Origin: an uncultured Pseudomonadota bacterium
Lineage (GTDB): Bacteria > Pseudomonadota > Alphaproteobacteria > RF32 > CAG-239
Reading direction: 5' to 3'
Length of the DNA: 64,000 nt
NCBI GenBank assembly: GCA_902763905.1
Contig: CACWUA010000009.1
Location: 808 to 64,807 of the forward strand
Position numbers and translations under genes: made by a program. Below the pieces are notes generated by a model that saw only the letters and a list, made by a program, of their open reading frames with translations, was not told where the DNA came from and did no database searches. Below, one piece after another: positions 6,291-19,898 of this stretch (position 1 is the first letter of the stretch; each line of letters opens with the position of its first letter).

Positions 6291-6395
6291 CAATTTGCCA
6301 AACAAAAAAGTCACAAATTACCGAACGAAAAAGTCACAATTTGCCGAACGAAAAAGTCACAATTTGCCGAACGAAAAAGTCACAAATGACCGAAT
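6291..6395 (+). repeat. Tandem array, 4.5 copies of a 23-bp unit CAATTTGCCGAACGAAAAAGTCA
   Basis: Units start at 6291, 6314, 6337, 6360 and 6383 (partial). Units 3 and 4 are identical. Confidence 0.9.
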
Positions 6396-7136
6396 CAGAA
6401 TAAAAATAACTGGAAAAACAATATGATATCTTCTTGGGTGGTGATCGACATCTAAATGATAATTTATCGGCGGAAGTGAGAGCAGAAATATCAACGTTTG
6501 AAACATCAATTTCGCCTTTCATAAGTTTTGGTAACAATGTGTCCCGAAGTGCCGCTAGCCGTGTATTTTCTAGAGAATTATTCCATATAAGCCTGTCTAA
6601 TACAGAACATGTATTTTCAAATTTTATCATAATTTCATTTGTAGGGATAGTAACCGGCATATTATACAATGAATCTTTATTCACTGAACCAAAAACAGTT
6701 CCTTCTCCGTTAAAAATATTTAATCTATCTTGAGATGCCCAAATGGTGTAAAGGATAAACGATTGACAATTTTGTTTTGACCGAATTGCACATAACCCTC
6801 TTCCAATACAACAATTATCCATGGCTACATTAAAATCTCCTACAGGTGCTCGAACGCTCATGATTACATCACCTGTTTGGGCCATACGTTTGGGTTCTGT
6901 TGTATATAATCTAACTCTAGGAAATCGGGCTCCAAATTCGGCTCTGCCTTGAAAAAAAATGCAACCGTTTTTTTCTTCATTATAACTACTGCCATTTGGA
7001 GATTGACCCATTATAATTTCTGCAATTTCACCAAGTTTTCCAACTTTCCAATCTTCCGGCATAACTCCGCCGAAAGGTTCAAAATCCACAAACCATGACT
7101 TAAATAGAGCCTGTGCCTGTTGTTCTAAATTATTAT
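6334..7136 (-). CDS. hsdS: Promoterless type I RM specificity (HsdS) half cassette: alternative TRD2 plus conserved regions
   Basis: The translation ..INNNLEQQAQALFKSWFVDFEPFGG..TRD..RLAALRDTLLPKLMKGEIDVSNVDISALTSADKLSF parallels the second half of the full hsdS at 12809-14062. It has no start codon at the conserved-region boundary. The 3' tail of the ORF runs into the 23-bp repeats. Confidence 0.8.
6452..6516 (-). repeat. Inverted repeat IR-C (left copy), partner of 13988-14052
   Basis: Its reverse complement matches 13988-14052 at 62 of 65 positions (counted by eye). Confidence 0.9.
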
Positions 7137-7141
7137 TTATC
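7106..7141 (-). repeat. Inverted repeat IR-M (left copy), partner of 13351-13386
   Basis: Its reverse complement GATAAATAATAATTTAGAACAACAGGCACAGGCTCT matches 13351-13386 at 35 of 36 positions. It overlaps the recombinase stop codon. Confidence 0.9.
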
Positions 7142-8126
7142 CAATGAACTTGCGGTGGGCGAGCTTAACATTACTCTGTTTAACCATTGCGTATTGCAAA
7201 GTTGTGTCAATTCTTGAGTGACCGAGCAATTTTTGAAGCTGTTCTATTGGCATTCCTTTATCAATGGCCATTGTTGCAAGTGTTCGGCGGAATTTATGCG
7301 GATGCACCTTTGGAATATTCAAACGCAATCCAAGCTCACGAAGCCTAACCTCAATTCCGCTAATTTCTAAACGATTATATGGCGATTTTAAGGATACAAA
7401 CAGCGCGGCATTACTATCTGTCCGGCTTTCCAAATAATTCTGTAAATGAATTTTTGTTCTGGCATCAAAATATACTATCCGTTCCTTATCACCTTTCCCA
7501 AATACCACACATTCTCGTTCCGTAAAATTTATGTCCTCGCGATTAAGTAACACCATTTCTCCAACGCGCATTCCGGTAGAGGCTAACATATCAATCATAG
7601 CCAAATCACGTAGATTTCCGCATTCATCACGCATTAGCTCCAACATTTCATCTGAATATGTTTCTTTGATATTGGTGCCGGTTTTAACCTTATGTATCCG
7701 ACGCACCGGACTTTTAATAATATAATTTTCATCTTCAAGCCATGCGAAAAAACTAGATAATATGCGCCGGATATTATCAATAGTTACTCGGCTTGAATTA
7801 TTATTTATTTGATAGTCTGTTAAATAAGTACGTAAATCATCGGTAACAATTTGTTTGATATTTTTATTTACGATTTTCAGCATGTTAGTAATTGTAGCAT
7901 TGTAATATTTTATTGATTTTAGAGAGCATCCCTCAATTTTTTTTGCCGATAGAAATAGTTCAATATATGATGCATTTGATATTTCTGTATCTTCAAAATC
8001 AATTTTTTCCTTGATTTCATAACCATCAAACACCCGTTGCAATGTATCTCTCAATTCAATTAATTGACTGTTATCAATTTTGGTTTGCATTTCCAAAATA
8101 ATTTCATTTATTACTGTATCATTCAT
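7137..8126 (-). CDS. Tyrosine site-specific recombinase (XerC/D-integrase family), probable hsdS invertase
   Basis: 329 aa. Catalytic pattern STGMRVGE (R), HPHKFRRT (H-x-x-R), LLGHSRIDTTLQY (H, Y). It sits between the hsdS cassette and hsdM. Confidence 0.9.
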   Translation of the reverse strand: MNDTVINEIILEMQTKIDNSQLIELRDTLQRVFDGYEIKEKIDFEDTEISNASYIELFLSAKKIEGCSLKSIKYYNATITNMLKIVNKNIKQIVTDDLRTYLTDYQINNNSSRVTIDNIRRILSSFFAWLEDENYIIKSPVRRIHKVKTGTNIKETYSDEMLELMRDECGNLRDLAMIDMLASTGMRVGEMVLLNREDINFTERECVVFGKGDKERIVYFDARTKIHLQNYLESRTDSNAALFVSLKSPYNRLEISGIEVRLRELGLRLNIPKVHPHKFRRTLATMAIDKGMPIEQLQKLLGHSRIDTTLQYAMVKQSNVKLAHRKFIG

Positions 8127-9783: not shown

Positions 9784-10770
9784 ATGGTAGAACAACAGAA
9801 AAACATTGCGATTTATCAATCAGCAGACGGAAAAATGCAGATAGATGTTCATCTGCAAGAACAGACTATTTGGCTTTCTCTTGATCAAATTTCATCTTTA
9901 TTTCAAAAGGATAAATCAACAATATCTCGCCATATTAAGAATGTTTTTTTATCAGAAGAATTAGATAAAGAATCAGTTGTTGCAAATTTTGCAACAACTG
10001 CCAAAGATGGCAAAACCTATCAAGTTGATTACTATAATTTAGATATGATAATTTCGGTTGGTTATCGTGTAAATTCAAAAATTGCCACTCAATTTCGCAA
10101 ATGGGCAACTTTCGTCTTAAAACAATACCTTGTGGATGGATACGCTGTCAATGAAAAACGGCTACAGGAGCAAAAATCCAAAGTTGCTCAATTACAAAAT
10201 GCAATCAAACTCTTAAATCGGAGCATAGAGCATCAGGCAGATAATCTAGATGATGCTAAAAAATTAAGTGCCTTAATGGCAGATTTTGCTTCAGGTCTTG
10301 GTTTACTAGATGATTATGATAACAAAACTCTTGATACTAAAGGGAAAACAATCAAACCCGCGGTGGTTATTAAAAAAGAAGAATTTTTGAACGTTATTGA
10401 TAAAATGAAGCCGGAGTTTGGCTCAGACGTTTTTGCAAACCCCAAAGATGAGAGTTTTGATAGCTCAATTAATCAGATTTATCAGACATTCGGAGGACAA
10501 GAATGTTACCCTTCGTTAGAAGAAAAAGCGGCAATGTTGCTCTATTTTCTGGTAAAAAATCACAGCTTTACAGATGGCAACAAACGGATTGGCGCGGCTT
10601 GTTTCCTGTATTTTCTGGATAAAAACGGAATTTTATATCAAAATAATGTACAGATTATTGATAATGCGGCTTTGTTTGCACTCACTGTTTTAATCGCTGA
10701 AAGTAAGCCGGAAGAAAAAGAAATGATGAAACAGGTTATTATCAGCGTATTGAATAAGGAGGAGATTTAA
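9784..10770 (+). CDS. RhuM-like N-terminal domain fused to a Fic/Doc-family domain
   Basis: N-terminus TYQVDYYNLDMIISVGYRVNSKIATQFRKWAT (RhuM-type). C-terminal Doc-type Fic motif HSFTDGNKRIGAA. Confidence 0.8.
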   Translation: MVEQQKNIAIYQSADGKMQIDVHLQEQTIWLSLDQISSLFQKDKSTISRHIKNVFLSEELDKESVVANFATTAKDGKTYQVDYYNLDMIISVGYRVNSKIATQFRKWATFVLKQYLVDGYAVNEKRLQEQKSKVAQLQNAIKLLNRSIEHQADNLDDAKKLSALMADFASGLGLLDDYDNKTLDTKGKTIKPAVVIKKEEFLNVIDKMKPEFGSDVFANPKDESFDSSINQIYQTFGGQECYPSLEEKAAMLLYFLVKNHSFTDGNKRIGAACFLYFLDKNGILYQNNVQIIDNAALFALTVLIAESKPEEKEMMKQVIISVLNKEEI

Positions 10771-11598
10771 ATGCTATATGTTAGGAATTTCTTAAGATGG
10801 TGTTTCCTTACTGTAGTAGTTGGACTATCCTTGTCTTTACTCGGAGCTCACATTTATTACAAACATTTCCAAGCGCCAGAGTTATCATTTATACGTAGAA
10901 CATATGCTATATTCTCTGATGTAAATACTCATAATGCCCATATAGCTCTGTTTATAAATGAAAAACAAGTTAAAAATCTGTATATGACTACTATAAAGAT
11001 AGAAAATACTGGTGGTGTTGTATTAGAGCGTGGAAACTTTTCCGCAGAAATGAATCCATTACGAATAATCGGAGAAAATATAGAATCTGTTTTTATTGAT
11101 GAAAATAATTCTAATTTTAATTCTACAACACAAATTGTGAAAAAAGACGGAGAATTTTTGATTAATTTTAACTGGTTGAATCCTGGGGATTATATAACAA
11201 TAAATGTCTTCCACGAAAACAAAAATTCAAAAATAAATCTAATAGGTAGTTTTGAAAAAATAGGAACTTTAAAAGAAATCTTTATAAAAGATTTAATAGT
11301 GAAGCGTAATTTGCCCCGTGCAATTATTATCACAATCATTGTAATGGTAGGAACGTTATTAATCGTTGGATCAGTTTTTGTTATCTCTAACAAACTATCT
11401 TATGGTGCATTTTTGCTTTCGTTTAAGCAGCAAATAGCATGTGCATATGCAACAGTTCTTTATGAAAATGACAAGAAAAAAAGAACAAAAATCCTCAAAA
11501 AAATTATAAATACAAAAGAAGATAAGAAGCTTCAACAAATAGTAAATGAATGCTATAAGGATACATATAACAAAGAGAAGCCAAATAGGAGAAAATAG
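10771..11598 (+). CDS. Hypothetical two-TM membrane protein (gene B of the RM-embedded cassette)
   Basis: AAGGAGG RBS. The start abuts the Doc-like stop. Hydrophobic helices FLTVVVGLSLSLLGAHIYY and AIIITIIVMVGTLLIVGSVFVI flank a beta-rich segment. K-rich tail. Confidence 0.65.
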   Translation: MLYVRNFLRWCFLTVVVGLSLSLLGAHIYYKHFQAPELSFIRRTYAIFSDVNTHNAHIALFINEKQVKNLYMTTIKIENTGGVVLERGNFSAEMNPLRIIGENIESVFIDENNSNFNSTTQIVKKDGEFLINFNWLNPGDYITINVFHENKNSKINLIGSFEKIGTLKEIFIKDLIVKRNLPRAIIITIIVMVGTLLIVGSVFVISNKLSYGAFLLSFKQQIACAYATVLYENDKKKRTKILKKIINTKEDKKLQQIVNECYKDTYNKEKPNRRK

Positions 11599-11600
11599 AA

Positions 11601-11951
11601 ATGGAAAATAGTATTACATTGAATTCATTTACTGCCGGAGCGGTTGCCGGTATGGTTATTGCGGAGCTTCGTGGCTTCAATAACTATTTAATGAACAATT
11701 TTGATATGCGGCAGGAACGGTATCAAACAGCCATAAAAATATCTGAAAGCATAATCTCTATGCTATCACAGCAACCTTTTGAAAATCGCTCAAAAGAGGA
11801 AATGAAATTTTTGATAGACGTTTATAAAGAGGCTAGAATTCATCGAGATCCTTACGATAAAGACAGATTAGAAAACATCGCATCTTTAATGAAAGCAACA
11901 CTTGATTGGCTGGATGAGCAAAAACAATCGCAGGAGCAACAGCATGACTAG
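11601..11951 (+). CDS. Hypothetical small, mostly helical protein (gene C)
   Basis: 116 aa. AGGAG RBS. The start is 2 nt after the stop of gene B. Confidence 0.55.
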   Translation: MENSITLNSFTAGAVAGMVIAELRGFNNYLMNNFDMRQERYQTAIKISESIISMLSQQPFENRSKEEMKFLIDVYKEARIHRDPYDKDRLENIASLMKATLDWLDEQKQSQEQQHD

Positions 11952-12008
11952 CTGGCAGGAAATTAAATCAGAAGAATTTATTTTTTATAACTGTATGTAA
12001 TAAAGAAA

Positions 12009-12806
12009 GTGACTAAAATGACTGAAAATCAATATGATATTTTTTTATATTTTAAGGAATACATAGATTTATTCTTAAAGACAGTTATTCCGTATCTAGC
12101 TGAACAGACTGTTTCTCTATTAAAAAGTTGGTCATTTATTATTTTATTGGTGTTTTTATGCCTAAAGAAACCCATTATTGATCTTATTAATAAAATTTAT
12201 GAAATTCATTTTTCCAAAGGAAAAATATTTATTCAAAAGCAAGTTGAACAAGAAAAATCAGGGCTGGATACAAATCTTTTAACTACAAATAACGGTATCC
12301 CCCAGACCATCAACACAGGAAATACAGAATTATCACCCAAACTAAACAAAAATAAAAAAGGAATACATTTACCTGCCCTTCCAGATGACAATGTTTTTAA
12401 GGGCGTTTTCAATGATCAAGAAAAAATTATTAAAACAGAACTAACTAAGACTCCTTTCATTAAAGAAGAAGTGCTGATTCGTGAATTAGCTTCTTATCAA
12501 ATTGCATTAGATTATGAGCGAATTTTTAAGGATATGTTTAAGAGTCAAATTGATGCTCTAGAATACATAAATTCAAACGAACAAGGCGTCACAAAAAATG
12601 ATTTATTAAAATTTTATGATAAAGCCAAACAACAATACCCTGTTGCTTATCAAGATTTTTCTTTTGAAAATTGGTTTGCTTTCTTTGATATTCATAATTT
12701 CATCGAGCAAAAAGATAATAAACTTTATCCAACAGAGAAGTCTCAAGCATTCACATATTATATCATCGTTCAAAGACGGTATAATATTTTGTATAAAGGT
12801 CTATAA
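12009..12806 (+). CDS. Hypothetical membrane-anchored protein (gene D)
   Basis: 265 aa (GTG start; an alternative ATG lies at 12018). One hydrophobic helix SWSFIILLVFLCL. Helical C-terminal domain. The stop is 2 nt before the hsdS ATG. Confidence 0.6.
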   Translation: MTKMTENQYDIFLYFKEYIDLFLKTVIPYLAEQTVSLLKSWSFIILLVFLCLKKPIIDLINKIYEIHFSKGKIFIQKQVEQEKSGLDTNLLTTNNGIPQTINTGNTELSPKLNKNKKGIHLPALPDDNVFKGVFNDQEKIIKTELTKTPFIKEEVLIRELASYQIALDYERIFKDMFKSQIDALEYINSNEQGVTKNDLLKFYDKAKQQYPVAYQDFSFENWFAFFDIHNFIEQKDNKLYPTEKSQAFTYYIIVQRRYNILYKGL

Positions 12807-12808
12807 AT

Positions 12809-14062
12809 ATGACTAAATGGCGGGAAGTTAAATTAGGAGATATTTGTCTCATTATCGATGGGGATAGAGGTAAAAATTACCCAAGAGAAAATGAATTTTC
12901 AAGAGATGGATATTGTTTATTTTTAAATACAAAAAATGTTCCTAATATCAAATTTGATTTTTCAGAATGTGTTTTCATATCAAAAGATAAAGATGCACTT
13001 TTACGTAAAGGAAAACTGAAATTTGAGGATATTGTTGTAACAACTCGTGGTACATTAGCTAATTTTGCTTATTACACAAGAGAGTGTATATACAGTAATA
13101 TTAGGATAAATTCAGGTATGGTTATCCTACGAAATGAAAATCAAAATTTATATACTCCTTATTTGTATCATTTTTTGATGTCGAAAAATTTTAAACAGCA
13201 AGTAAGCTCTTTTGCAACAGGCTCTGCACAACCACAACTACCAATTAAGGATATGAAGAACATTTTGATATCATTACCACCTTTTGAGGTTCAGAAGAAG
13301 ATTGCGGGGGTGTTGGGTGCGCTGGATGATAAAATTGAGCTGAATAATAAGATAAATAATAATTTAGAACAACAGGCTCAGGCTCTTTATGTAAATAATA
13401 TAGAACTGTATAAGGAAAGAAATATCAAAGTTGAAGATATTGTAATAACTGCTAACACCGGTGCGGACGCTATACAAAAGGCTCCTATAGTTGATTACGA
13501 TACAGGAGTAAAGTGTGTAAGAGTTGGCGACATGTCAAATAAACGGAGCTATTCTGATTGGGGATATGCTAAAGTAACTGATGACGTATTTTCTCAGTAT
13601 CAATTAAAAAAAGATGATATAATTGTTACTAGAACTGCATCATTAGGACTAAACACAATCATTTCTAAAAATTTAGATGCAGTTTATAATAATGGTCTTA
13701 TCCGGCTAACCATAAATAAAGACGTAATAGTTCCTTTGCTTGTATATAGACAATTTCAGACGGATGATTTTAAGAATTACATATCAAAAATAGAAGGAGA
13801 AACATCCGTGCGACCTAATATGAAAATAAACTATTTATTGCAATATTCTTTTGCCGTAATGAATAAAGAAAAACAAAAGGAACTTATTAAAGTGCTTGAA
13901 CCTCTGTGGAATAAACAAGAACAATTAATAGAAGAAAACGCCAGACTGGCGGCGATACGGGATACGTTGTTGCCGAAACTCATGAGTGGCGAAATTGATG
14001 TTTCAAACGTGGATATTTCGGCTCTCACTTCCACCGATAAATTATCATTTAGTGGGGAGTAA
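12809..14062 (+). CDS. hsdS: Type I RM specificity subunit HsdS (full length: TRD1, central conserved region, TRD2, C-terminal conserved region)
   Basis: 417 aa. Central FEVQKKIAGVLGALDDKIELNNKINNNLEQQAQALY and C-terminal RLAAIRDTLLPKLMSGEIDVSN conserved helices. Confidence 0.9.
   Translation: MTKWREVKLGDICLIIDGDRGKNYPRENEFSRDGYCLFLNTKNVPNIKFDFSECVFISKDKDALLRKGKLKFEDIVVTTRGTLANFAYYTRECIYSNIRINSGMVILRNENQNLYTPYLYHFLMSKNFKQQVSSFATGSAQPQLPIKDMKNILISLPPFEVQKKIAGVLGALDDKIELNNKINNNLEQQAQALYVNNIELYKERNIKVEDIVITANTGADAIQKAPIVDYDTGVKCVRVGDMSNKRSYSDWGYAKVTDDVFSQYQLKKDDIIVTRTASLGLNTIISKNLDAVYNNGLIRLTINKDVIVPLLVYRQFQTDDFKNYISKIEGETSVRPNMKINYLLQYSFAVMNKEKQKELIKVLEPLWNKQEQLIEENARLAAIRDTLLPKLMSGEIDVSNVDISALTSTDKLSFSGE
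13351..13386 (+). repeat. Inverted repeat IR-M (right copy) inside the hsdS central conserved region
   Basis: See 7106-7141. Confidence 0.9.
13988..14052 (+). repeat. Inverted repeat IR-C (right copy) inside the hsdS C-terminal conserved region
   Basis: See 6452-6516. Confidence 0.9.
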
Positions 14063-14065
14063 AAC

Positions 14066-14539
14066 ATGGATTGGGCAAGTTGGATTAATGTAGCTTTATC
14101 GGGAGCAATGTTATGGTTAACCATTGCCATACTCAAGCTTAATAAAACTATGACTAAAATAGCAGAAGATGATAAACTAGAAAAAACTGGTCATGATTTA
14201 TCAATAACATTACCAACATTGTATCTTGGCAAAAATGAAAATACAGGAGTTTTAAATAATTTTTGCATTATAAATCATAAAAATAAAATGGAAGCCATTT
14301 ATCGTATATATGCTAAAGAACAAGGAAATGATAAAGAACTTGGTTTTTGGATTGCTGATAAAGAACCGATTATGATTTCCCCTTATAGTTGTTCTTATGT
14401 AACTAAGAATGTTACTCCGTCCCTAAAAATGTTTGATATAGATAAAATAGAGTTATATGCTATAACTAATGATTGTACTGTCAAACTTAATAAAAACATT
14501 GATTGCTTTAATAAACCTATGGAAGCGAAAAAAGAGTAA
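14066..14539 (+). CDS. Hypothetical single-TM protein (gene E)
   Basis: 157 aa. GGGGAG RBS. The start is 3 nt after the hsdS stop. N-terminal helix INVALSGAMLWLTIAIL followed by a beta-rich domain. Confidence 0.6.
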   Translation: MDWASWINVALSGAMLWLTIAILKLNKTMTKIAEDDKLEKTGHDLSITLPTLYLGKNENTGVLNNFCIINHKNKMEAIYRIYAKEQGNDKELGFWIADKEPIMISPYSCSYVTKNVTPSLKMFDIDKIELYAITNDCTVKLNKNIDCFNKPMEAKKE

Positions 14540-14630
14540 TATTTATGCGTAGCAAAATTGATGTTGACAAGGTAAAGATATAAGAATTAAAAATATAAGT
14601 AACATTTAATATAAGCAAAGAGAGGAAAAG

Positions 14631-15374
14631 ATGTTTTTGAATGATACTATATTACCTATGTTGGCTGTCATAGTTACAGGATATATATCTATGATTTATA
14701 CGTTACTGATATTTTTAAGAAAAGGAAGAGAACGAAAAAAAATAATAGATAAGTATTTAGACTCTGTTAAACATCTTAATAGAGATGATGCTTTAGCCTT
14801 TTTAGAAAAAATAGATAATAGATACTATAGTAAAACATCATCACAAAAAAAGCTAGAAGATATTACAGCAAAAAGTATATATGAAAATTACAGATTAGCT
14901 TCAGAAAAAGAAGCTATTCAGTGTAATTTTTTTAGGACCTTATTAATTTCTACAATTGTCATTTTTACAATCTTAATTATGACATTGCAGTCTGTATTTT
15001 TCATAAATGATATAACTGTTTTGGCTTTGGCAAATAGAACTCTTATAGTGCTTCCATTTTTAGTTTTAATCTTATTTGCGGCAAGAGAGGCTTCTAGACA
15101 TAGAAAATCTTTTATTATTAATAGGCAAAAATTTTTAGACTTAAATACAATTGACGAATATATTAAGGGATTTTCTGAAAAAGATAAAATAGCAGTAAAA
15201 AAAGATTTGTGCAGACATTTTTTTAATCATAAAGAATTTGATTATAAATGTAGAGAGGAATTACTATCTAGAAATCTTGTAAATGTTATAGAGAAGATAA
15301 ATGCTAATAGCAATGATGCCATGGAAAAAATATTAAAAACGATTAATCAAACATCTTCGAACAAAGGAGCATAA
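14631..15374 (+). CDS. Hypothetical multi-TM protein (gene F)
   Basis: 247 aa. AGAGAGG RBS. Helices ILPMLAVIVTGYISMIYTLLIFL, LLISTIVIFTILIMTLQSVFFI and LIVLPFLVLILFAA. The stop is 3 nt before the hsdR ATG. Confidence 0.6.
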   Translation: MFLNDTILPMLAVIVTGYISMIYTLLIFLRKGRERKKIIDKYLDSVKHLNRDDALAFLEKIDNRYYSKTSSQKKLEDITAKSIYENYRLASEKEAIQCNFFRTLLISTIVIFTILIMTLQSVFFINDITVLALANRTLIVLPFLVLILFAAREASRHRKSFIINRQKFLDLNTIDEYIKGFSEKDKIAVKKDLCRHFFNHKEFDYKCREELLSRNLVNVIEKINANSNDAMEKILKTINQTSSNKGA

Positions 15375-15377
15375 CTC

Positions 15378-18300
15378 ATGACATACACAAATCCGGTGAA
15401 TGAAGAAGCGTATGAAAACTCGATTATAGAGCTGTTTCAAGAACTCGGCTATACGCATGTTTATGGGCCGGATGTGGAAGATAGAGATTTTACTTCGCCG
15501 CTTTATGAGCCGGTGCTGATAAATGCTCTCCACCAAATCAATCCGAAATTGCCGGAGGAAGCGATAAATGAGGCTCTGTTTAAGCTCAAAAACTTTGAAA
15601 ATGCCGAACTGACGCAGAAAAACGCGTTGTTTATGGATTATTTGCAAAACGGCATCACTGTCCATTATACCGAAAAAGGCGAACCTCGCGATACACTGGT
15701 TTATTTGATTGATTATGAAAAGCCGGACAATAATTCATTTATTGTTGCCAACCAATGGACATTTGTTGAAAATAGTGAAAAACGTCCGGACGTATTGTTA
15801 TTTATTAACGGTTTGCCACTGGTATTGATGGAACTGAAATCGCCTTCACGCGAAGAAACTGATGCCTCCGAAGCATATCGCCAAATTCAGAATTACAAGC
15901 ATGAAATACCATCAATGTTTGTTTATAATGCTATTTGCGTTATGAGTGATTTGGCGGTATCTAAAGCCGGAACGATAACATCTGACGAAACTCGCTTTAT
16001 GGAGTGGAAGACGGTTGACGGTTCTTATGAAAATACCAAATATGCCCAGTTCGATACATTTTTTAACGGTATTTTTGAAAAGTCGCGCCTGCTTGATATT
16101 TTGAAAAACTTTATTTGCTTTTCTAACGAAAACAAAGGAGCAGCAAAGATTTTAGCTGGCTACCACCAATATTTCGCGGTTAAAAAAGCGATTGAATCAA
16201 CCAAACACGCGACACAAACTGACGGTAAAGGCGGTGTATTCTGGCATACACAAGGGAGCGGAAAGTCGCTTTCTATGGTGTTTTACGCGCATTTGTTACA
16301 AAGTGCATTAAACAGCCCGACAATAGTTGTCATTACTGACCGTAACGATTTGGATGACCAACTGTATACGCAGTTTTCTAAATGTAAAGACTTTCTGCGC
16401 CAAGAACCGGTGCAGGCTACCAGTCGCGCTCATTTGAAACAGCTTTTGGATGGTATCAAAGCCAACGGTATTTTCTTTACCACAATGCAGAAATTTGAGG
16501 AATCACCGGAACCGTTGTCAGAGCGTCGTAATATTATCGTAATGGCGGATGAGGCACACCGCGGGCAGTATGGCTTAAGCGAAAAGATAGATAAAGACGG
16601 AAATATCAAAGTCGGTACAGCGCGAATTATTCGTAATTCTCTGCCAAACGCAACATATATTGGTTTTACCGGAACGCCGCTTTCTCTTGATGACCGCAAC
16701 ACGCGAGAGGTATTTGGCGATTATATCGATATTTATGATATGACACAAGCGGTGGAAGATGGTGCAACACGTCCGGTTTATTATGAAAGCCGCGTGATAA
16801 AACTTCACTTAAAGCCGGAGATTTTGCAACTGATTGATGCTGAATATGATTTAATGGCGCAAAATGCCGATCCGGAAGTTATTGAAAAAAGCAAAAAACA
16901 GCTTGGGCAGATGGAAACTATTTTGAGCGATGACGACACAATCAATTCGCTTGTCTGCGATATTTTGGATCACTACGAGAACTATCGCGAGAATTTATTG
17001 ACAGGTAAAGCCATGATTGTGGCTTATTCTCGACCAATTGCTCTAAAAATTTATCATCGGATTTTGGAGCTTCGTCCGGCATGGAAGAATAAAGTTGCGG
17101 TGGTTATGACTTCGGATAATAAAGATCCGGAAGATTGGCGTGCCATTATCGGTAATAAATCGCATAAAGAGGAATTGGCTCGTAAATTTAAGGACAATTC
17201 GGATCCTTTGAAAATTGCAATTGTCGTTGATATGTGGTTGACCGGCTTTGATGTGCCGTCACTTTCTACAATGTATGTTTATAAGCCGATGGAAGGTCAT
17301 AATCTGATGCAGGCGATTGCTCGTGTTAATCGTGTGTTTGAAGATAAAGAAGGCGGCTTAGTGGTCGATTATATTGGCATTGCAAGTGCTTTGAAAAAGG
17401 CTATGAATGACTATACCATCCGCGATAGAAAGAACTACGGCAACATGGACATTGCCACCACCGCATTTAACAAATTTAAGGAAAAATTGCAGGTCTGCCG
17501 CGATTTGTTGCATGGTTTTGATTATAGCGAATTTGCGACCGGAACGAATTTAGTCAGAGCTAAGTTAATCAGCGGTGCGGCAAACTTTATTATCGATAGA
17601 GAGAAAAATAAAGAAAAGGATGCCTTTATTAAGCAAGCTCTCATGTTGCATCAAGCACTGTCGCTTTGCTCATCCATTGTTGAAGAAGGATTGCGTATTG
17701 AGGCGGCATTTATTGAAGCTGTTAGGATTATGATTTTGCGCTTTACCGAAAGCGGTGGTCACAAGAAAATATCATTACCGGAAATGAATAAGCGTATCAA
17801 TGAATTGCTGGAAAAAAGCATAAAGAGCGATGGTGTTATCAATCTGTTTTCGGATATAAAAGAAGAATTCTCTCTGTTTGATCCGAAATTTTTGGAAGAA
17901 ATATCCAAGATGAAAGAGAAAAATTTGGCGGTGGAATTGTTGAAAAAGTTAATAGCAGAGCAAATTTCAATCTATCGCCACACAAATGTTGTTCGCTCCG
18001 AAAAATTCAGCGAAATGATACAAGAAGCAATGAATCGTTATCTTAACGGTATGCTGACAAACGAACAAGTTATTGAAGAATTGCTTAATTTGGCAAAACA
18101 AATCGCGTCAGCACAAAAAGAAGGTGAAGATTTAGGACTTAATGCAGAGGAAGCCGCATTTTATGATGCATTAACCAAACCAGAAGCTGTCAAAGATTTT
18201 TATGAAAATGACGAATTAATTGCTATAACAAAAGAACTTACAGAAACTTTACGCAAAAACAAAACAATTGACTTTCAAAAACGCGAACCAGCACGAGCTA

Positions 18301-18425
18301 AAATGCGCATGATTGTTAGAAAATTGCTTAAAAAATATAAATATCCTCCGGAAGGAGTGGAAGATGCTGTCCAAACAGTAATGACGCAGTGCGAATTGTG
18401 GGCAGATAATGTAATGGCTGTATAA
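15378..18425 (+). CDS. hsdR: Type I RM restriction endonuclease/helicase subunit HsdR
   Basis: 1015 aa. Walker A HTQGSGKS. DEAH box MADEAHRGQYG. Helicase C-terminal motifs. Confidence 0.95.
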   Translation: MTYTNPVNEEAYENSIIELFQELGYTHVYGPDVEDRDFTSPLYEPVLINALHQINPKLPEEAINEALFKLKNFENAELTQKNALFMDYLQNGITVHYTEKGEPRDTLVYLIDYEKPDNNSFIVANQWTFVENSEKRPDVLLFINGLPLVLMELKSPSREETDASEAYRQIQNYKHEIPSMFVYNAICVMSDLAVSKAGTITSDETRFMEWKTVDGSYENTKYAQFDTFFNGIFEKSRLLDILKNFICFSNENKGAAKILAGYHQYFAVKKAIESTKHATQTDGKGGVFWHTQGSGKSLSMVFYAHLLQSALNSPTIVVITDRNDLDDQLYTQFSKCKDFLRQEPVQATSRAHLKQLLDGIKANGIFFTTMQKFEESPEPLSERRNIIVMADEAHRGQYGLSEKIDKDGNIKVGTARIIRNSLPNATYIGFTGTPLSLDDRNTREVFGDYIDIYDMTQAVEDGATRPVYYESRVIKLHLKPEILQLIDAEYDLMAQNADPEVIEKSKKQLGQMETILSDDDTINSLVCDILDHYENYRENLLTGKAMIVAYSRPIALKIYHRILELRPAWKNKVAVVMTSDNKDPEDWRAIIGNKSHKEELARKFKDNSDPLKIAIVVDMWLTGFDVPSLSTMYVYKPMEGHNLMQAIARVNRVFEDKEGGLVVDYIGIASALKKAMNDYTIRDRKNYGNMDIATTAFNKFKEKLQVCRDLLHGFDYSEFATGTNLVRAKLISGAANFIIDREKNKEKDAFIKQALMLHQALSLCSSIVEEGLRIEAAFIEAVRIMILRFTESGGHKKISLPEMNKRINELLEKSIKSDGVINLFSDIKEEFSLFDPKFLEEISKMKEKNLAVELLKKLIAEQISIYRHTNVVRSEKFSEMIQEAMNRYLNGMLTNEQVIEELLNLAKQIASAQKEGEDLGLNAEEAAFYDALTKPEAVKDFYENDELIAITKELTETLRKNKTIDFQKREPARAKMRMIVRKLLKKYKYPPEGVEDAVQTVMTQCELWADNVMAV

Positions 18426-18883
18426 TGATCAAAGTTTTGTTTGTATGTTTGGGAAATATTTGTCGGTCGCCGATGGCGGATTTTGTGTTTAAACAAATGG
18501 TCGCCGCAAAGGGGCTGTCGGAGCAGTTTTATATTGATTCTGCCGCCACCGAGCGCTTTAACGAAATGTGCCACGCCGGCATTCATCACGGCACCCGCGA
18601 CAAGCTGAAAGCCATGCAAATTCCGTTCGAGGAGCATTATTCGCGGCAAATTCGCCCGCGCGACTACGTGTATTTCGACTACATTATCGCGATGGACGAT
18701 AGTAATATTGATGACATTTTGGAGATTGTCGGACCGGATACGGAGCGCAAAATTTATCGCCTGCTTGATTTTACGGACCATCCGCGCAATATCCGCGATC
18801 CATGGTATACCGGCAATTTTGACGAGAGCTATGATGATATCAGCGAGGGTTGTCAGGCGTTTTTGGAATATTTAAATCTATAA
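18425..18883 (+). CDS. Low-molecular-weight protein-tyrosine phosphatase
   Basis: P-loop VLFVCLGNICRSPMA (CX5R-S) and the DPWY acid loop. The ATG overlaps the hsdR TAA by 1 nt. Confidence 0.85.
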   Translation: MIKVLFVCLGNICRSPMADFVFKQMVAAKGLSEQFYIDSAATERFNEMCHAGIHHGTRDKLKAMQIPFEEHYSRQIRPRDYVYFDYIIAMDDSNIDDILEIVGPDTERKIYRLLDFTDHPRNIRDPWYTGNFDESYDDISEGCQAFLEYLNL

Positions 18884-18974: not shown

Positions 18975-19898
18975 ATGTCAGATTTAAAGCTGTTTAATAT
19001 CAAAAGTGGCAAAGCTGTTGAGCTCAATAGCTTAATTGTTAGCAAAGAGCGTAATATTCAAAGGATTGTAGAAGAAAATAGCGATATACTATTGAATGTA
19101 CGCTTTTTGAAAAGTGAGCATGCTTTCAAAGCAGAAGATGGACATAATGCTCGTATTGATACTTTAGGTCTTGATGAAAATAATTGTCCTGTGATTATTG
19201 AATATAAGAGAGATGGCAAAGATACGGTTATCAATCAAGGTTTATTTTACATGGATTGGTTGGTAAAGCACCCCAAGGATTTTGCTTGGTTAGTATTAGA
19301 AAAGTTTGGGAAGAAAGTTGCTGATGATATCGACTGGTCTCAACCACGTTTAATTTGTATTGCACAAGATTTTAGTCGTTATGATGAATTTGCAATCAAA
19401 CAGATGCAAAAAAATATTGATTTAATGCGCTATCGTATATATGAGAATGACCTCTTACTATTTGAATTAGTCAATAGTTCTAGCGACGAAAATAATAAGT
19501 CTACTACTAACAGTATGTTAAAAAAAGAACATAGCACCAATAAAAAAGTTAAAACGGTAATAGATAAATTAGATGCGGCATCTTCAGATATTAAGTCCCT
19601 ATATAATGAATTGGATGATTATCTCCTGTCTTTAGGGGATGATGTTCAAAAGAAGGTTCTAATGCATTATATTGCCTATAGGCGGTTGAAAAATTTTGCC
19701 TCTGTGCAATTTAATAAAAACGAAATACAAATATATGTCAATGTTGATGCGGAAACAATTAATTTAGAAAAAGGTTTTACGCGTGACGTTCGTAATCTTG
19801 GGCATCTTGGAACAGGAAAATTGGAAATAACAATTAAGAATTTAGCGGAATTAGAAAAAGCAAAACCTTTGATAGAGAAAAGTTTAACTCGATCATGA
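18975..19898 (+). CDS. PD-(D/E)xK (NucS/DUF91-like) N-terminal domain protein with a DUF5655-like C-terminal half
   Basis: RIDTLGLDENNCPVIIEYKR gives a D...E-x-K pattern. The C-terminal HYIAYRRLKNFASVQFNKNEIQIYVNV pattern was recalled from memory. Confidence 0.5.
   Translation: MSDLKLFNIKSGKAVELNSLIVSKERNIQRIVEENSDILLNVRFLKSEHAFKAEDGHNARIDTLGLDENNCPVIIEYKRDGKDTVINQGLFYMDWLVKHPKDFAWLVLEKFGKKVADDIDWSQPRLICIAQDFSRYDEFAIKQMQKNIDLMRYRIYENDLLLFELVNSSSDENNKSTTNSMLKKEHSTNKKVKTVIDKLDAASSDIKSLYNELDDYLLSLGDDVQKKVLMHYIAYRRLKNFASVQFNKNEIQIYVNVDAETINLEKGFTRDVRNLGHLGTGKLEITIKNLAELEKAKPLIEKSLTRS

Follow-up and report, generated by a model that had tools for sequence, protein, structure and literature searches.

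Genes E and F at the hsdS-hsdR junction of an alphaproteobacterial type I restriction-modification operon: two independent, probably defence-related genes at a cargo hotspot

Why should two small membrane-protein genes lie between hsdS and hsdR of a type I restriction-modification (RM) operon? The question is raised by a 64,000-nt stretch of DNA from an uncultured alphaproteobacterium (GenBank assembly GCA_902763905.1, contig CACWUA010000009.1, positions 808 to 64,807), called the window here and numbered from its first letter. In it hsdS (417 aa; 12809-14062; Pfam Methylase_S, E-value 4e-25) and hsdR (1015 aa; 15378-18425) are the left and right borders of a site that holds gene E (157 aa; 14066-14539) and gene F (247 aa; 14631-15374), all four on the + strand. 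The domains of hsdR, which are HSDR_N, ResIII, T1R_D3-like and T1RH-like_C, were recorded on an identical gene in another locus (L020). The original prediction, made from the letters of the window, had placed E and F at these coordinates, with 3-nt gaps to hsdS and hsdR, at the type of junction that holds PrrC, and all of this was borne out by the sequence. In the EcoprrI paradigm PrrC is the classic occupant of the hsdS-hsdR junction (bioRxiv 10.1101/2024.01.29.577857). The alignments described below indicate that E and F are cargo genes independent of each other, each from a new, unnamed family.

When the same junction was examined in related operons it was found to be occupied in most of them. 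The census covered 80 metagenomic loci, chosen for an HsdR N-terminus with 74-97% identity to that of the window; in 68 of these hsdS lies upstream on the same strand, and a junction was counted as occupied when at least 150 nt separate hsdS from hsdR. By this measure 58 of the 68 junctions are occupied and 10 hold no cargo, and the occupants are at least 45 unrelated clusters of open reading frames (ORFs). Because of this occupancy by so many unrelated ORFs we conclude that the hsdS-hsdR junction in this type I RM lineage is a hotspot for cargo of the "embedded defence gene" kind, a point that was absent from the original prediction. When 27 representative occupants were scanned against Pfam and PADLOC, the Pfam matches were to CAP12-PCTIR_TIR, TIR_2, AAA_21/AAA_15, FRG, SLFN_AlbA_2 (Schlafen), HEPN, HipA_2, DUF4238 and DUF2971, and the PADLOC matches were to AbiLi, AriA-like, ThsB-like TIR and PDC-S15, S34, S35, S50 and S66. 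Embedded defence genes have been described for type I RM, BREX, DISARM and Hma systems, guilt-by-embedding has been applied in type I RM, and the PDC families were defined by their embedding in defence systems (bioRxiv 10.1101/2024.01.29.577857). TgvAB of Vibrio cholerae VPI-2 are embedded defence genes that have been proven experimentally. Since the related operons carry many anti-phage-type genes at the very site where E and F lie, E and F are probably new defence genes and not housekeeping genes, the function being read from genomic context. E and F themselves were not among the junction occupants of the 80 census loci. One junction (L096, 2557-3369) holds, upstream of the full hsdR, an extra ORF that is an HsdR N-terminal fragment, a duplication or recombination remnant.

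The borders of the cargo could be placed by comparison with the closest sister locus (L024), which has a 97% identical HsdR and the same hsdS C-terminus and carries two unrelated soluble genes in place of E and F. DNA homology between the window and this locus ends at 14063, at the hsdS stop, and resumes at 15363, at the hsdR ribosome-binding site, so that the right edge of the cassette is the stretch 15363-15377 (+ strand) with the hsdR Shine-Dalgarno sequence AAGGAG inside it. The order in which the two genes arrived is shown by the spacer between them, where blastn and alignment against L001 and L002 revealed a relic of an hsdS 3' end at 14543-14599 (+ strand). It is about 90% identical to the hsdS 3' end and pre-F spacer of these two loci and still reads ...SKIDVDKVKI*. 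The blastn homology with L001 begins at 14543 and continues through F into hsdR at 88.8%, and the hsdS 3' end of the window together with the start of E matches another locus, L011 (13932-14194, 84%). This relic between the two genes shows that E arrived after F, and that F once followed hsdS directly. The simplest history would start from an ancestor of the order hsdS→F→hsdR; its hsdS would then have undergone a crossover in the conserved "GEIDV" region, by which a new hsdS end came in along with E. The conserved hsdS 3' end (GEIDV...) is on these alignments both an inverted repeat of the shufflon described below and the recombination joint of cargo exchange. Synonymous divergence between the window and L001 (F at 14631-15374 against 10001-10741) is 0.24 for F and 0.86 for the adjacent hsdR. 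As F has diverged less than hsdR, it seems that the exchange of F, or of the F-hsdR border, from one operon to another is more recent than the divergence of the enzyme genes. Loci with F but no E are L001-L009, L017 and L110, and those with E but no F are L010-L013. The treatment of E and F as a pair therefore did not survive, as each is found without the other and E is the later insertion.

Gene E has one N-terminal transmembrane (TM) segment by hydropathy, at about residues 5-25 (nt 14078-14140), and its AlphaFold2 model, with a pLDDT of 78.7, consists of a helix at residues 3-40 that holds the TM segment, followed by an eight-strand immunoglobulin (Ig)-like beta-sandwich at about residues 45-143 (nt 14198-14494). 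This agrees with the TM helix plus beta-rich domain that had been proposed for it. The most conserved part is the TM helix together with the linker "KLNKTMTKIAEDDKLEKTGH". A 5.8-billion-protein collection contains 10 clusters of E homologues, with a pairwise ratio of nonsynonymous to synonymous substitution (dN/dS) of 0.16-0.34, and one relative (P0021) has only the 44 residues of this TM helix and linker in common with E, 75% identical, and then continues into a different, multi-TM C-terminus. E had no match in Pfam, NCBIfam or PADLOC, and Foldseek searches of the PDB and viral models with the E model returned only generic Ig-like, pilin-like, ApaG and PCuAC sandwiches at TM-scores of at most 0.46. 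An E homologue is alone in the hsdS-hsdR junction of L011, whose HsdR is 85% identical to that of the window; another (L010) follows a reverse-transcriptase gene and precedes a DUF2513 gene; and in L012/13 a homologue lies beside a type II RM pair and is followed by a 318-aa gene. To judge from these contexts E is an independently mobile gene of defence neighbourhoods. Most likely it stands by itself as a single-gene candidate for defence or exclusion, and the conserved TM helix plus linker would be its working part. The suggestion that E might be related or paralogous to gene B, which lies upstream in the operon, had to be dropped: the BLASTP E-value is 0.78, hhalign of the E profile against B gave a probability of 0.13%, and hidden Markov models (HMMs) of the N-terminal and beta domains of E missed B at an E-value of at most 0.05, so that the resemblance appears to be one of general architecture only. 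Three census occupants, L042 3726-4969, L036 4331-4969 and L063 3281-4072, begin with an E-like combination of a short "D-[WC]-x-N" tail and a single TM helix, and that of L042 (178 aa) has a beta-rich domain after the TM helix. An N-terminal anchor common to E and these three was rejected, as it was seen by eye only, with an hhalign probability of 2%, and an HMM found none.

Gene F has three TM segments by hydropathy, TM1 at residues 8-29 (nt 14652-14717) and a hairpin of TM2 (101-123) and TM3 (135-152) at nt 14931-15086, and the basic stretch REASRHRKSF stands directly after TM3, as the original prediction had it. Residues 30-100 form a basic helical linker, predicted to be cytoplasmic. There are 7 K/R in the 15 residues after TM1 and 5 K/R in the 15 after TM3, and by the positive-inside rule the N-terminus of F is predicted to be outside the inner membrane and the linker and conserved tail to be cytoplasmic. 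Two motifs of this predicted cytoplasmic part are invariant in the F family, REASRHRKSFIINRQK (nt 15084-15131, + strand) and HFFNHKEFDYKC (nt 15216-15251, + strand), and the core of F can be written as two TM helices plus the motif "REASRHRKSxIINRQK...HFFN". The protein collection searched with E contains 9 clusters of F homologues, and the pairwise dN/dS is 0.25-0.35 for F compared to 0.035 for hsdR. Because of their homologue clusters and these dN/dS values, E and F are real genes and not chance ORFs. F homologues at 86, 50, 47, 43 and 33% identity are all found in the order hsdS→F→hsdR, which accounts for 6 of the 7 clusters examined, in operons whose HsdR is 74-95% and HsdM 81-95% identical to those of the window; in L001 F and hsdR overlap by 4 nt. 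The exception is the P0004 cluster (49% identical to F; L111 and L112), where no hsdS or hsdM was found and the F homologue is intact. In L111 hsdR is cut to a 34-codon 3' relic (7076-7177), as it is in L112, and in both loci the F homologue and a Trypco2-like neighbour adjoin a 616-aa AAA_15 ABC ATPase gene. This neighbour belongs to the P0003/P0004/P0006 branch of F homologues, in which a small gene of 83-104 aa follows F (L004 10740-10991; L007 10719-11030; L111 6722-7036) and matches Trypco2 (PF19631) at a sub-threshold E-value of about 0.004. Trypco2 is a domain described from conflict systems, and in this branch F may have the small gene, which the window lacks, as its partner.

F was found at one locus only, in the metagenome-assembled genome of an uncultured alphaproteobacterium, when 185,579 GTDB species representatives were scanned, and tblastn of F against plasmids gave no match. 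The AlphaFold2 model of F, made from ten sequences, is all-helical and unreliable. F had only weak Csx1 and RTasSLATT matches in PADLOC, and by sequence neither E nor F has relatives of solved structure. A housekeeping membrane family was rejected for both genes, as Pfam, NCBIfam and PADLOC gave nothing for E and sub-threshold noise for F. Both genes are conserved among the related RM loci, and no housekeeping membrane family matches either of them; had one of these findings gone the other way, it would have told against the original prediction.

When the F-family profile was searched against 1.84 billion representative proteins at an E-value cut-off of 1e-3, it was found that F belongs to a superfamily of 553 representatives. 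Most members are 350-520 aa long, with the F-like part in the C-terminal 170 residues and a long coiled coil as the N-terminus. The core, taken from an alignment of 26 sequences (A3), consists of an amphipathic helix, two TM helices, a juxtamembrane segment "Y-A-A-[RK]-E-S-x-[KR]-H-R ... N-R ... E-L-E-L-A" and then an FFG-type end, "...L-P......K..L...F-F-G"; in shorthand it is "ES[KR]HR..NR..ELELA...FFG", of which the two motifs of F given above are the counterparts. The members fall in no Pfam or NCBIfam family, match no PADLOC model and have no meaningful name in their source databases. The names that they do carry, "hypothetical", "coiled-coil domain-containing", "gas vesicle protein" and "apolipoprotein A-I", were set aside as driven by composition and uninformative, and the PADLOC matches of the coiled-coil relatives to ZorA, JetC and LeoBC were likewise rejected as composition artefacts located in the N-terminal coiled coil. 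On a conjugative plasmid of Vibrio crassostreae a 424-aa member (profile E-value 1e-35) occupies the order hsdM-hsdS-[member]-DUF4268-hsdR, and as the HsdR of this plasmid is only 39% identical to that of the window, this is an independent embedding in the same hsdS-hsdR slot. A Vibrio prophage of the P2/186-like kind has a 480-aa member whose start coincides with the CI repressor stop; the lysogeny module of a temperate Microcystis phage includes a member of 415 aa; on two IMG/VR contigs, found with a narrower alignment (A5), a lone member stands on the strand opposite to its neighbours, which is the usual look of a moron; and on a Parageobacillus plasmid a member is beside an IS630 transposase. 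In the neighbourhoods examined the wider superfamily is mostly outside RM systems. The profile matches thus indicate that the F core belongs to a large unnamed superfamily of SLATT-like 2TM proteins on plasmids, on prophages and in RM operons.

The original prediction had likened F to the two-TM effectors of conflict systems, and SLATT was indeed the most frequent Pfam and PADLOC match, always below threshold. SLATT proteins are mobile, predicted pore-forming effectors with 2-3 TM helices (PMC9226505). They are effectors or accessories of CBASS, RADAR, DRT3 and DRT10. A SLATT-type core of two or three TM helices is present in F, namely the TM2/TM3 hairpin plus TM1, and the hairpin is conserved across A3. 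F of the window had no SLATT match in Pfam at an E-value of at most 1. The PADLOC model RTasSLATT matched it at 1.3e-3, collinear over profile positions 14-128 of 176, and matched 4 of the 10 F-family members, the best at 6.9e-5. Pfam SLATT_1 (PF18181) was the commonest family in A3, with 6 of the 26 members matching (best E-value 7.9e-4), and on one relative it scored 18.8 bits against a cut-off of 26.3. The links of F and its superfamily to conflict systems are type I RM junctions and prophage lysogeny modules, and none to SMODS, SLOG or reverse-transcriptase genes was seen in the neighbourhoods examined. When the literature was searched for SLATT and restriction-modification in combination, no SLATT-like gene was found described as embedded in an RM system. 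F resembles SLATT, with a profile signal that is weak though consistent, and may be distantly related to it, and we do not file it as a member.

The signals around the two genes were examined for what they say of transcription. The hsdS stop is at 14060-14062 and the ATG of E at 14066, with the Shine-Dalgarno sequence GGGGAG of E lying within the hsdS 3' end; the stop of E is at 14537-14539 and, after a spacer of 91 nt, F begins with an ATG at 14631 that has GAGAGGA ahead of it; and the stop of F is at 15372-15374 and the ATG of hsdR at 15378, the Shine-Dalgarno sequence of hsdR overlapping the 3' end of F. On the + strand no terminator-like hairpin was detected from the hsdS stop to the hsdR start, and promoter-like sites between hsdS and hsdR were not above shuffle expectation. 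For these two reasons co-transcription of E and F with the operon is plausible.

The explanation that we favour, and hold with somewhat more confidence than doubt, sees in E and F two separate cargo genes of a defence hotspot. F would serve in abortive infection or exclusion as an effector that permeabilises the membrane, latent at first and gated by its juxtamembrane segment, and E would be a protein anchored in the membrane. The junction is a recombination hotspot at which accessory genes, mostly of the defence type, are swapped as cassettes, with the conserved 3' end of hsdS on one side and the ribosome-binding site of hsdR on the other; the cargo is probably co-transcribed with the operon. 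The trigger of F would be an infection cue in the cytoplasm, which would act on the conserved segment beside the membrane and open or oligomerise it, by which the membrane would be permeabilised. Several observations weigh against this explanation. Neither E nor F is among the 145 PADLOC candidates or in any of the census loci, both are rare and their enrichment is anecdotal; two metagenomic coiled-coil relatives of F are in places that do not look like defence, one after a LytTR two-component pair and one next to a deaminase; all the SLATT matches are below curated cut-offs and could partly reflect the generic composition of a TM hairpin; the fold of E is generic and gives no functional hint; and the F model is poor (pLDDT 57), so that structural support for F is absent.

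Another explanation, which we consider unlikely, is that F is a guard in the manner of PrrC, the founding RM-linked member of a large, undescribed membrane-effector family, in which a 2TM hairpin would be joined to an invariant basic switch beside the membrane, and a second line of defence. Here the type I restriction complex, HsdMSR, would hold F closed and latent; once the enzyme is disabled, by an anti-restriction protein of a phage or by a failure of DNA translocation, F would permeabilise the inner membrane. F does sit in the slot of PrrC and has kept it while diverging to 33% identity (HsdR 74%), its coupling to hsdR is tight, with a gap of 3 nt in the window and an overlap of 4 nt in L001, and on the Vibrio plasmid an unrelated type I RM operon has a distant member of the superfamily at this junction. 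However, in L111 and L112 the F homologue is intact although only the 34-codon relic of hsdR is left and no hsdM or hsdS was found, sister operons with a 97% identical HsdR have no F, superfamily members stand alone in prophages, and the low synonymous divergence of F compared to hsdR (0.24 against 0.86) suggests movement between operons. The idea to which we give the least credence of all is that F or E or both are accessory subunits of the restriction system, serving for example in membrane tethering or in the control of restriction alleviation, and no separate defence genes. The position of F has been stable through a long divergence of the operon and co-transcription is probable, as accessory subunits would have it, but at least 45 unrelated alternatives, and 10 of 68 junctions with no cargo, mean that the enzyme does not need F or E, and relatives of both are also found outside RM systems.

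Whether E and F might instead work together has also to be considered, since they are adjacent, co-oriented, both membrane proteins, and found together on 4 of the 4 contigs that have this exact locus. That they form one system, in which E senses at the membrane and F is the effector, is nevertheless very improbable, as each occurs without the other, the hsdS 3'-end relic in the spacer shows separate acquisition, and another subclade of F has a different small neighbour, the Trypco2-like gene (E-value about 0.004). It is improbable, too, that E and F are selfish or neutral passengers, that is, toxins of the addiction type or decaying remnants of mobile elements. Their rarity would suit such passengers, with 9-10 homologue clusters each and one locus among the 185,579 GTDB species representatives, and so would the high turnover at the site; yet both genes are under purifying selection (dN/dS 0.16-0.35), the frames are intact in all homologues read, no transposase or integrase is present inside the cassette, and the motifs are strongly conserved across the 553-member superfamily.

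The operon as a whole has the order hsdM, RhuM/Fic, B, C, D, hsdS, E, F, hsdR and a low-molecular-weight phosphatase gene, and upstream on the opposite strand are a tyrosine recombinase gene and a spare half-hsdS. Two pairs of inverted repeats join the spare hsdS to the active hsdS, 6452-6571/13933-14052 (120 nt, 84%) and 7106-7141/13351-13386 (36 nt, 97%). An inversion at either pair would turn round the recombinase gene and hsdM together with the upstream cargo and hsdS as far as its first half, and from the positions of the repeats it was confirmed that E, F and hsdR would stay in place, as had been expected. The invertible segment of this shufflon (6334-8126 and 13351-14052) is unusually large, 6.2-7.4 kb with recombinase, hsdM, RhuM/Fic, B, C, D and half of hsdS, and the predicted inversion would separate hsdM and hsdS from hsdR. 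The hsdM-hsdS junction (9784-12806) is a second cargo site, with the RhuM/Fic gene, which is the PADLOC candidate PDC-S23 (E-value 1e-128), and genes B, C and D; B has two TM segments, C and D have one each, and none of the three has any family match. In sister loci this junction holds a PIN_12 gene (L011), proteins of 162 and 475 aa (L001) or one of 223 aa (L004). Downstream, the low-molecular-weight phosphatase (LMWPc) gene (18425-18883) begins on the hsdR stop codon, a coupling also seen in L001-L003, L011 and L020 and not in L004, L007 and L017. A DUF5655 gene (18975-19898) follows the operon; a DUF4268 gene is near the operon in L011 (9212-10144), and another (L104 7686-8834) is the gene between the F-superfamily member and hsdR on the V. 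crassostreae plasmid, so that an association of DUF5655 and DUF4268 with type I RM recurs.

If the defence function read from context holds, two new families join the defence genes found by embedding. The larger return would be the F superfamily, with hundreds of diverged members that have a sharply conserved cytoplasmic motif by a TM hairpin, and its recurrence in restriction operons and prophage immunity regions makes it a candidate, and a tractable one, for a new single-gene membrane mechanism of abortive infection or exclusion. The locus also shows cargo exchange clearly, with a crossover in the hsdS 3' end, a relic left behind and a repeat shared with the specificity-switching shufflon. 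The long residence of F beside hsdR makes a PrrC-type coupling between enzyme and membrane effector directly testable, and if such a coupling is true, F would be the first guard of a restriction enzyme to act on the membrane.

How then do E and F compare with known systems? Like PrrC, TgvAB and the PDC genes, both are co-oriented with the hsd genes and nested among them, and F is in the same hsdS-hsdR slot as PrrC. PrrC, however, has an ABC-type ATPase domain and an anticodon nuclease domain, whereas searches of Pfam, NCBIfam and PADLOC matched E and F to no model of an ATPase, a nuclease or PrrC. As co-oriented nested genes they are also of the kind from which the PDC candidates of PADLOC (Payne et al.) were drawn, but they are small membrane proteins and neither has a significant match to a PDC model. 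F and SLATT, both SLATT_1 and the RT-associated form of DRT10 and DRT3, are alike in their 2-3 TM helices, small size, high mobility and association with conflict systems. They differ in that F has the invariant cytoplasmic segment "EASRHRKS-IINRQK...HFFNHKEFDYKC" and an extra N-terminal TM helix, in that most F relatives have an N-terminal coiled coil of 200-300 aa, and in that the partner of F is a type I RM system or none, and not a nucleotide cyclase or reverse transcriptase. Finally, the named exclusion proteins show no sequence relationship to F in Pfam, PHROG-independent libraries and PADLOC as searched, but the members of the F superfamily are placed as the moron-type exclusion and abortive-infection genes of prophages are, near repressor and lysogeny genes or alone on the opposite strand.

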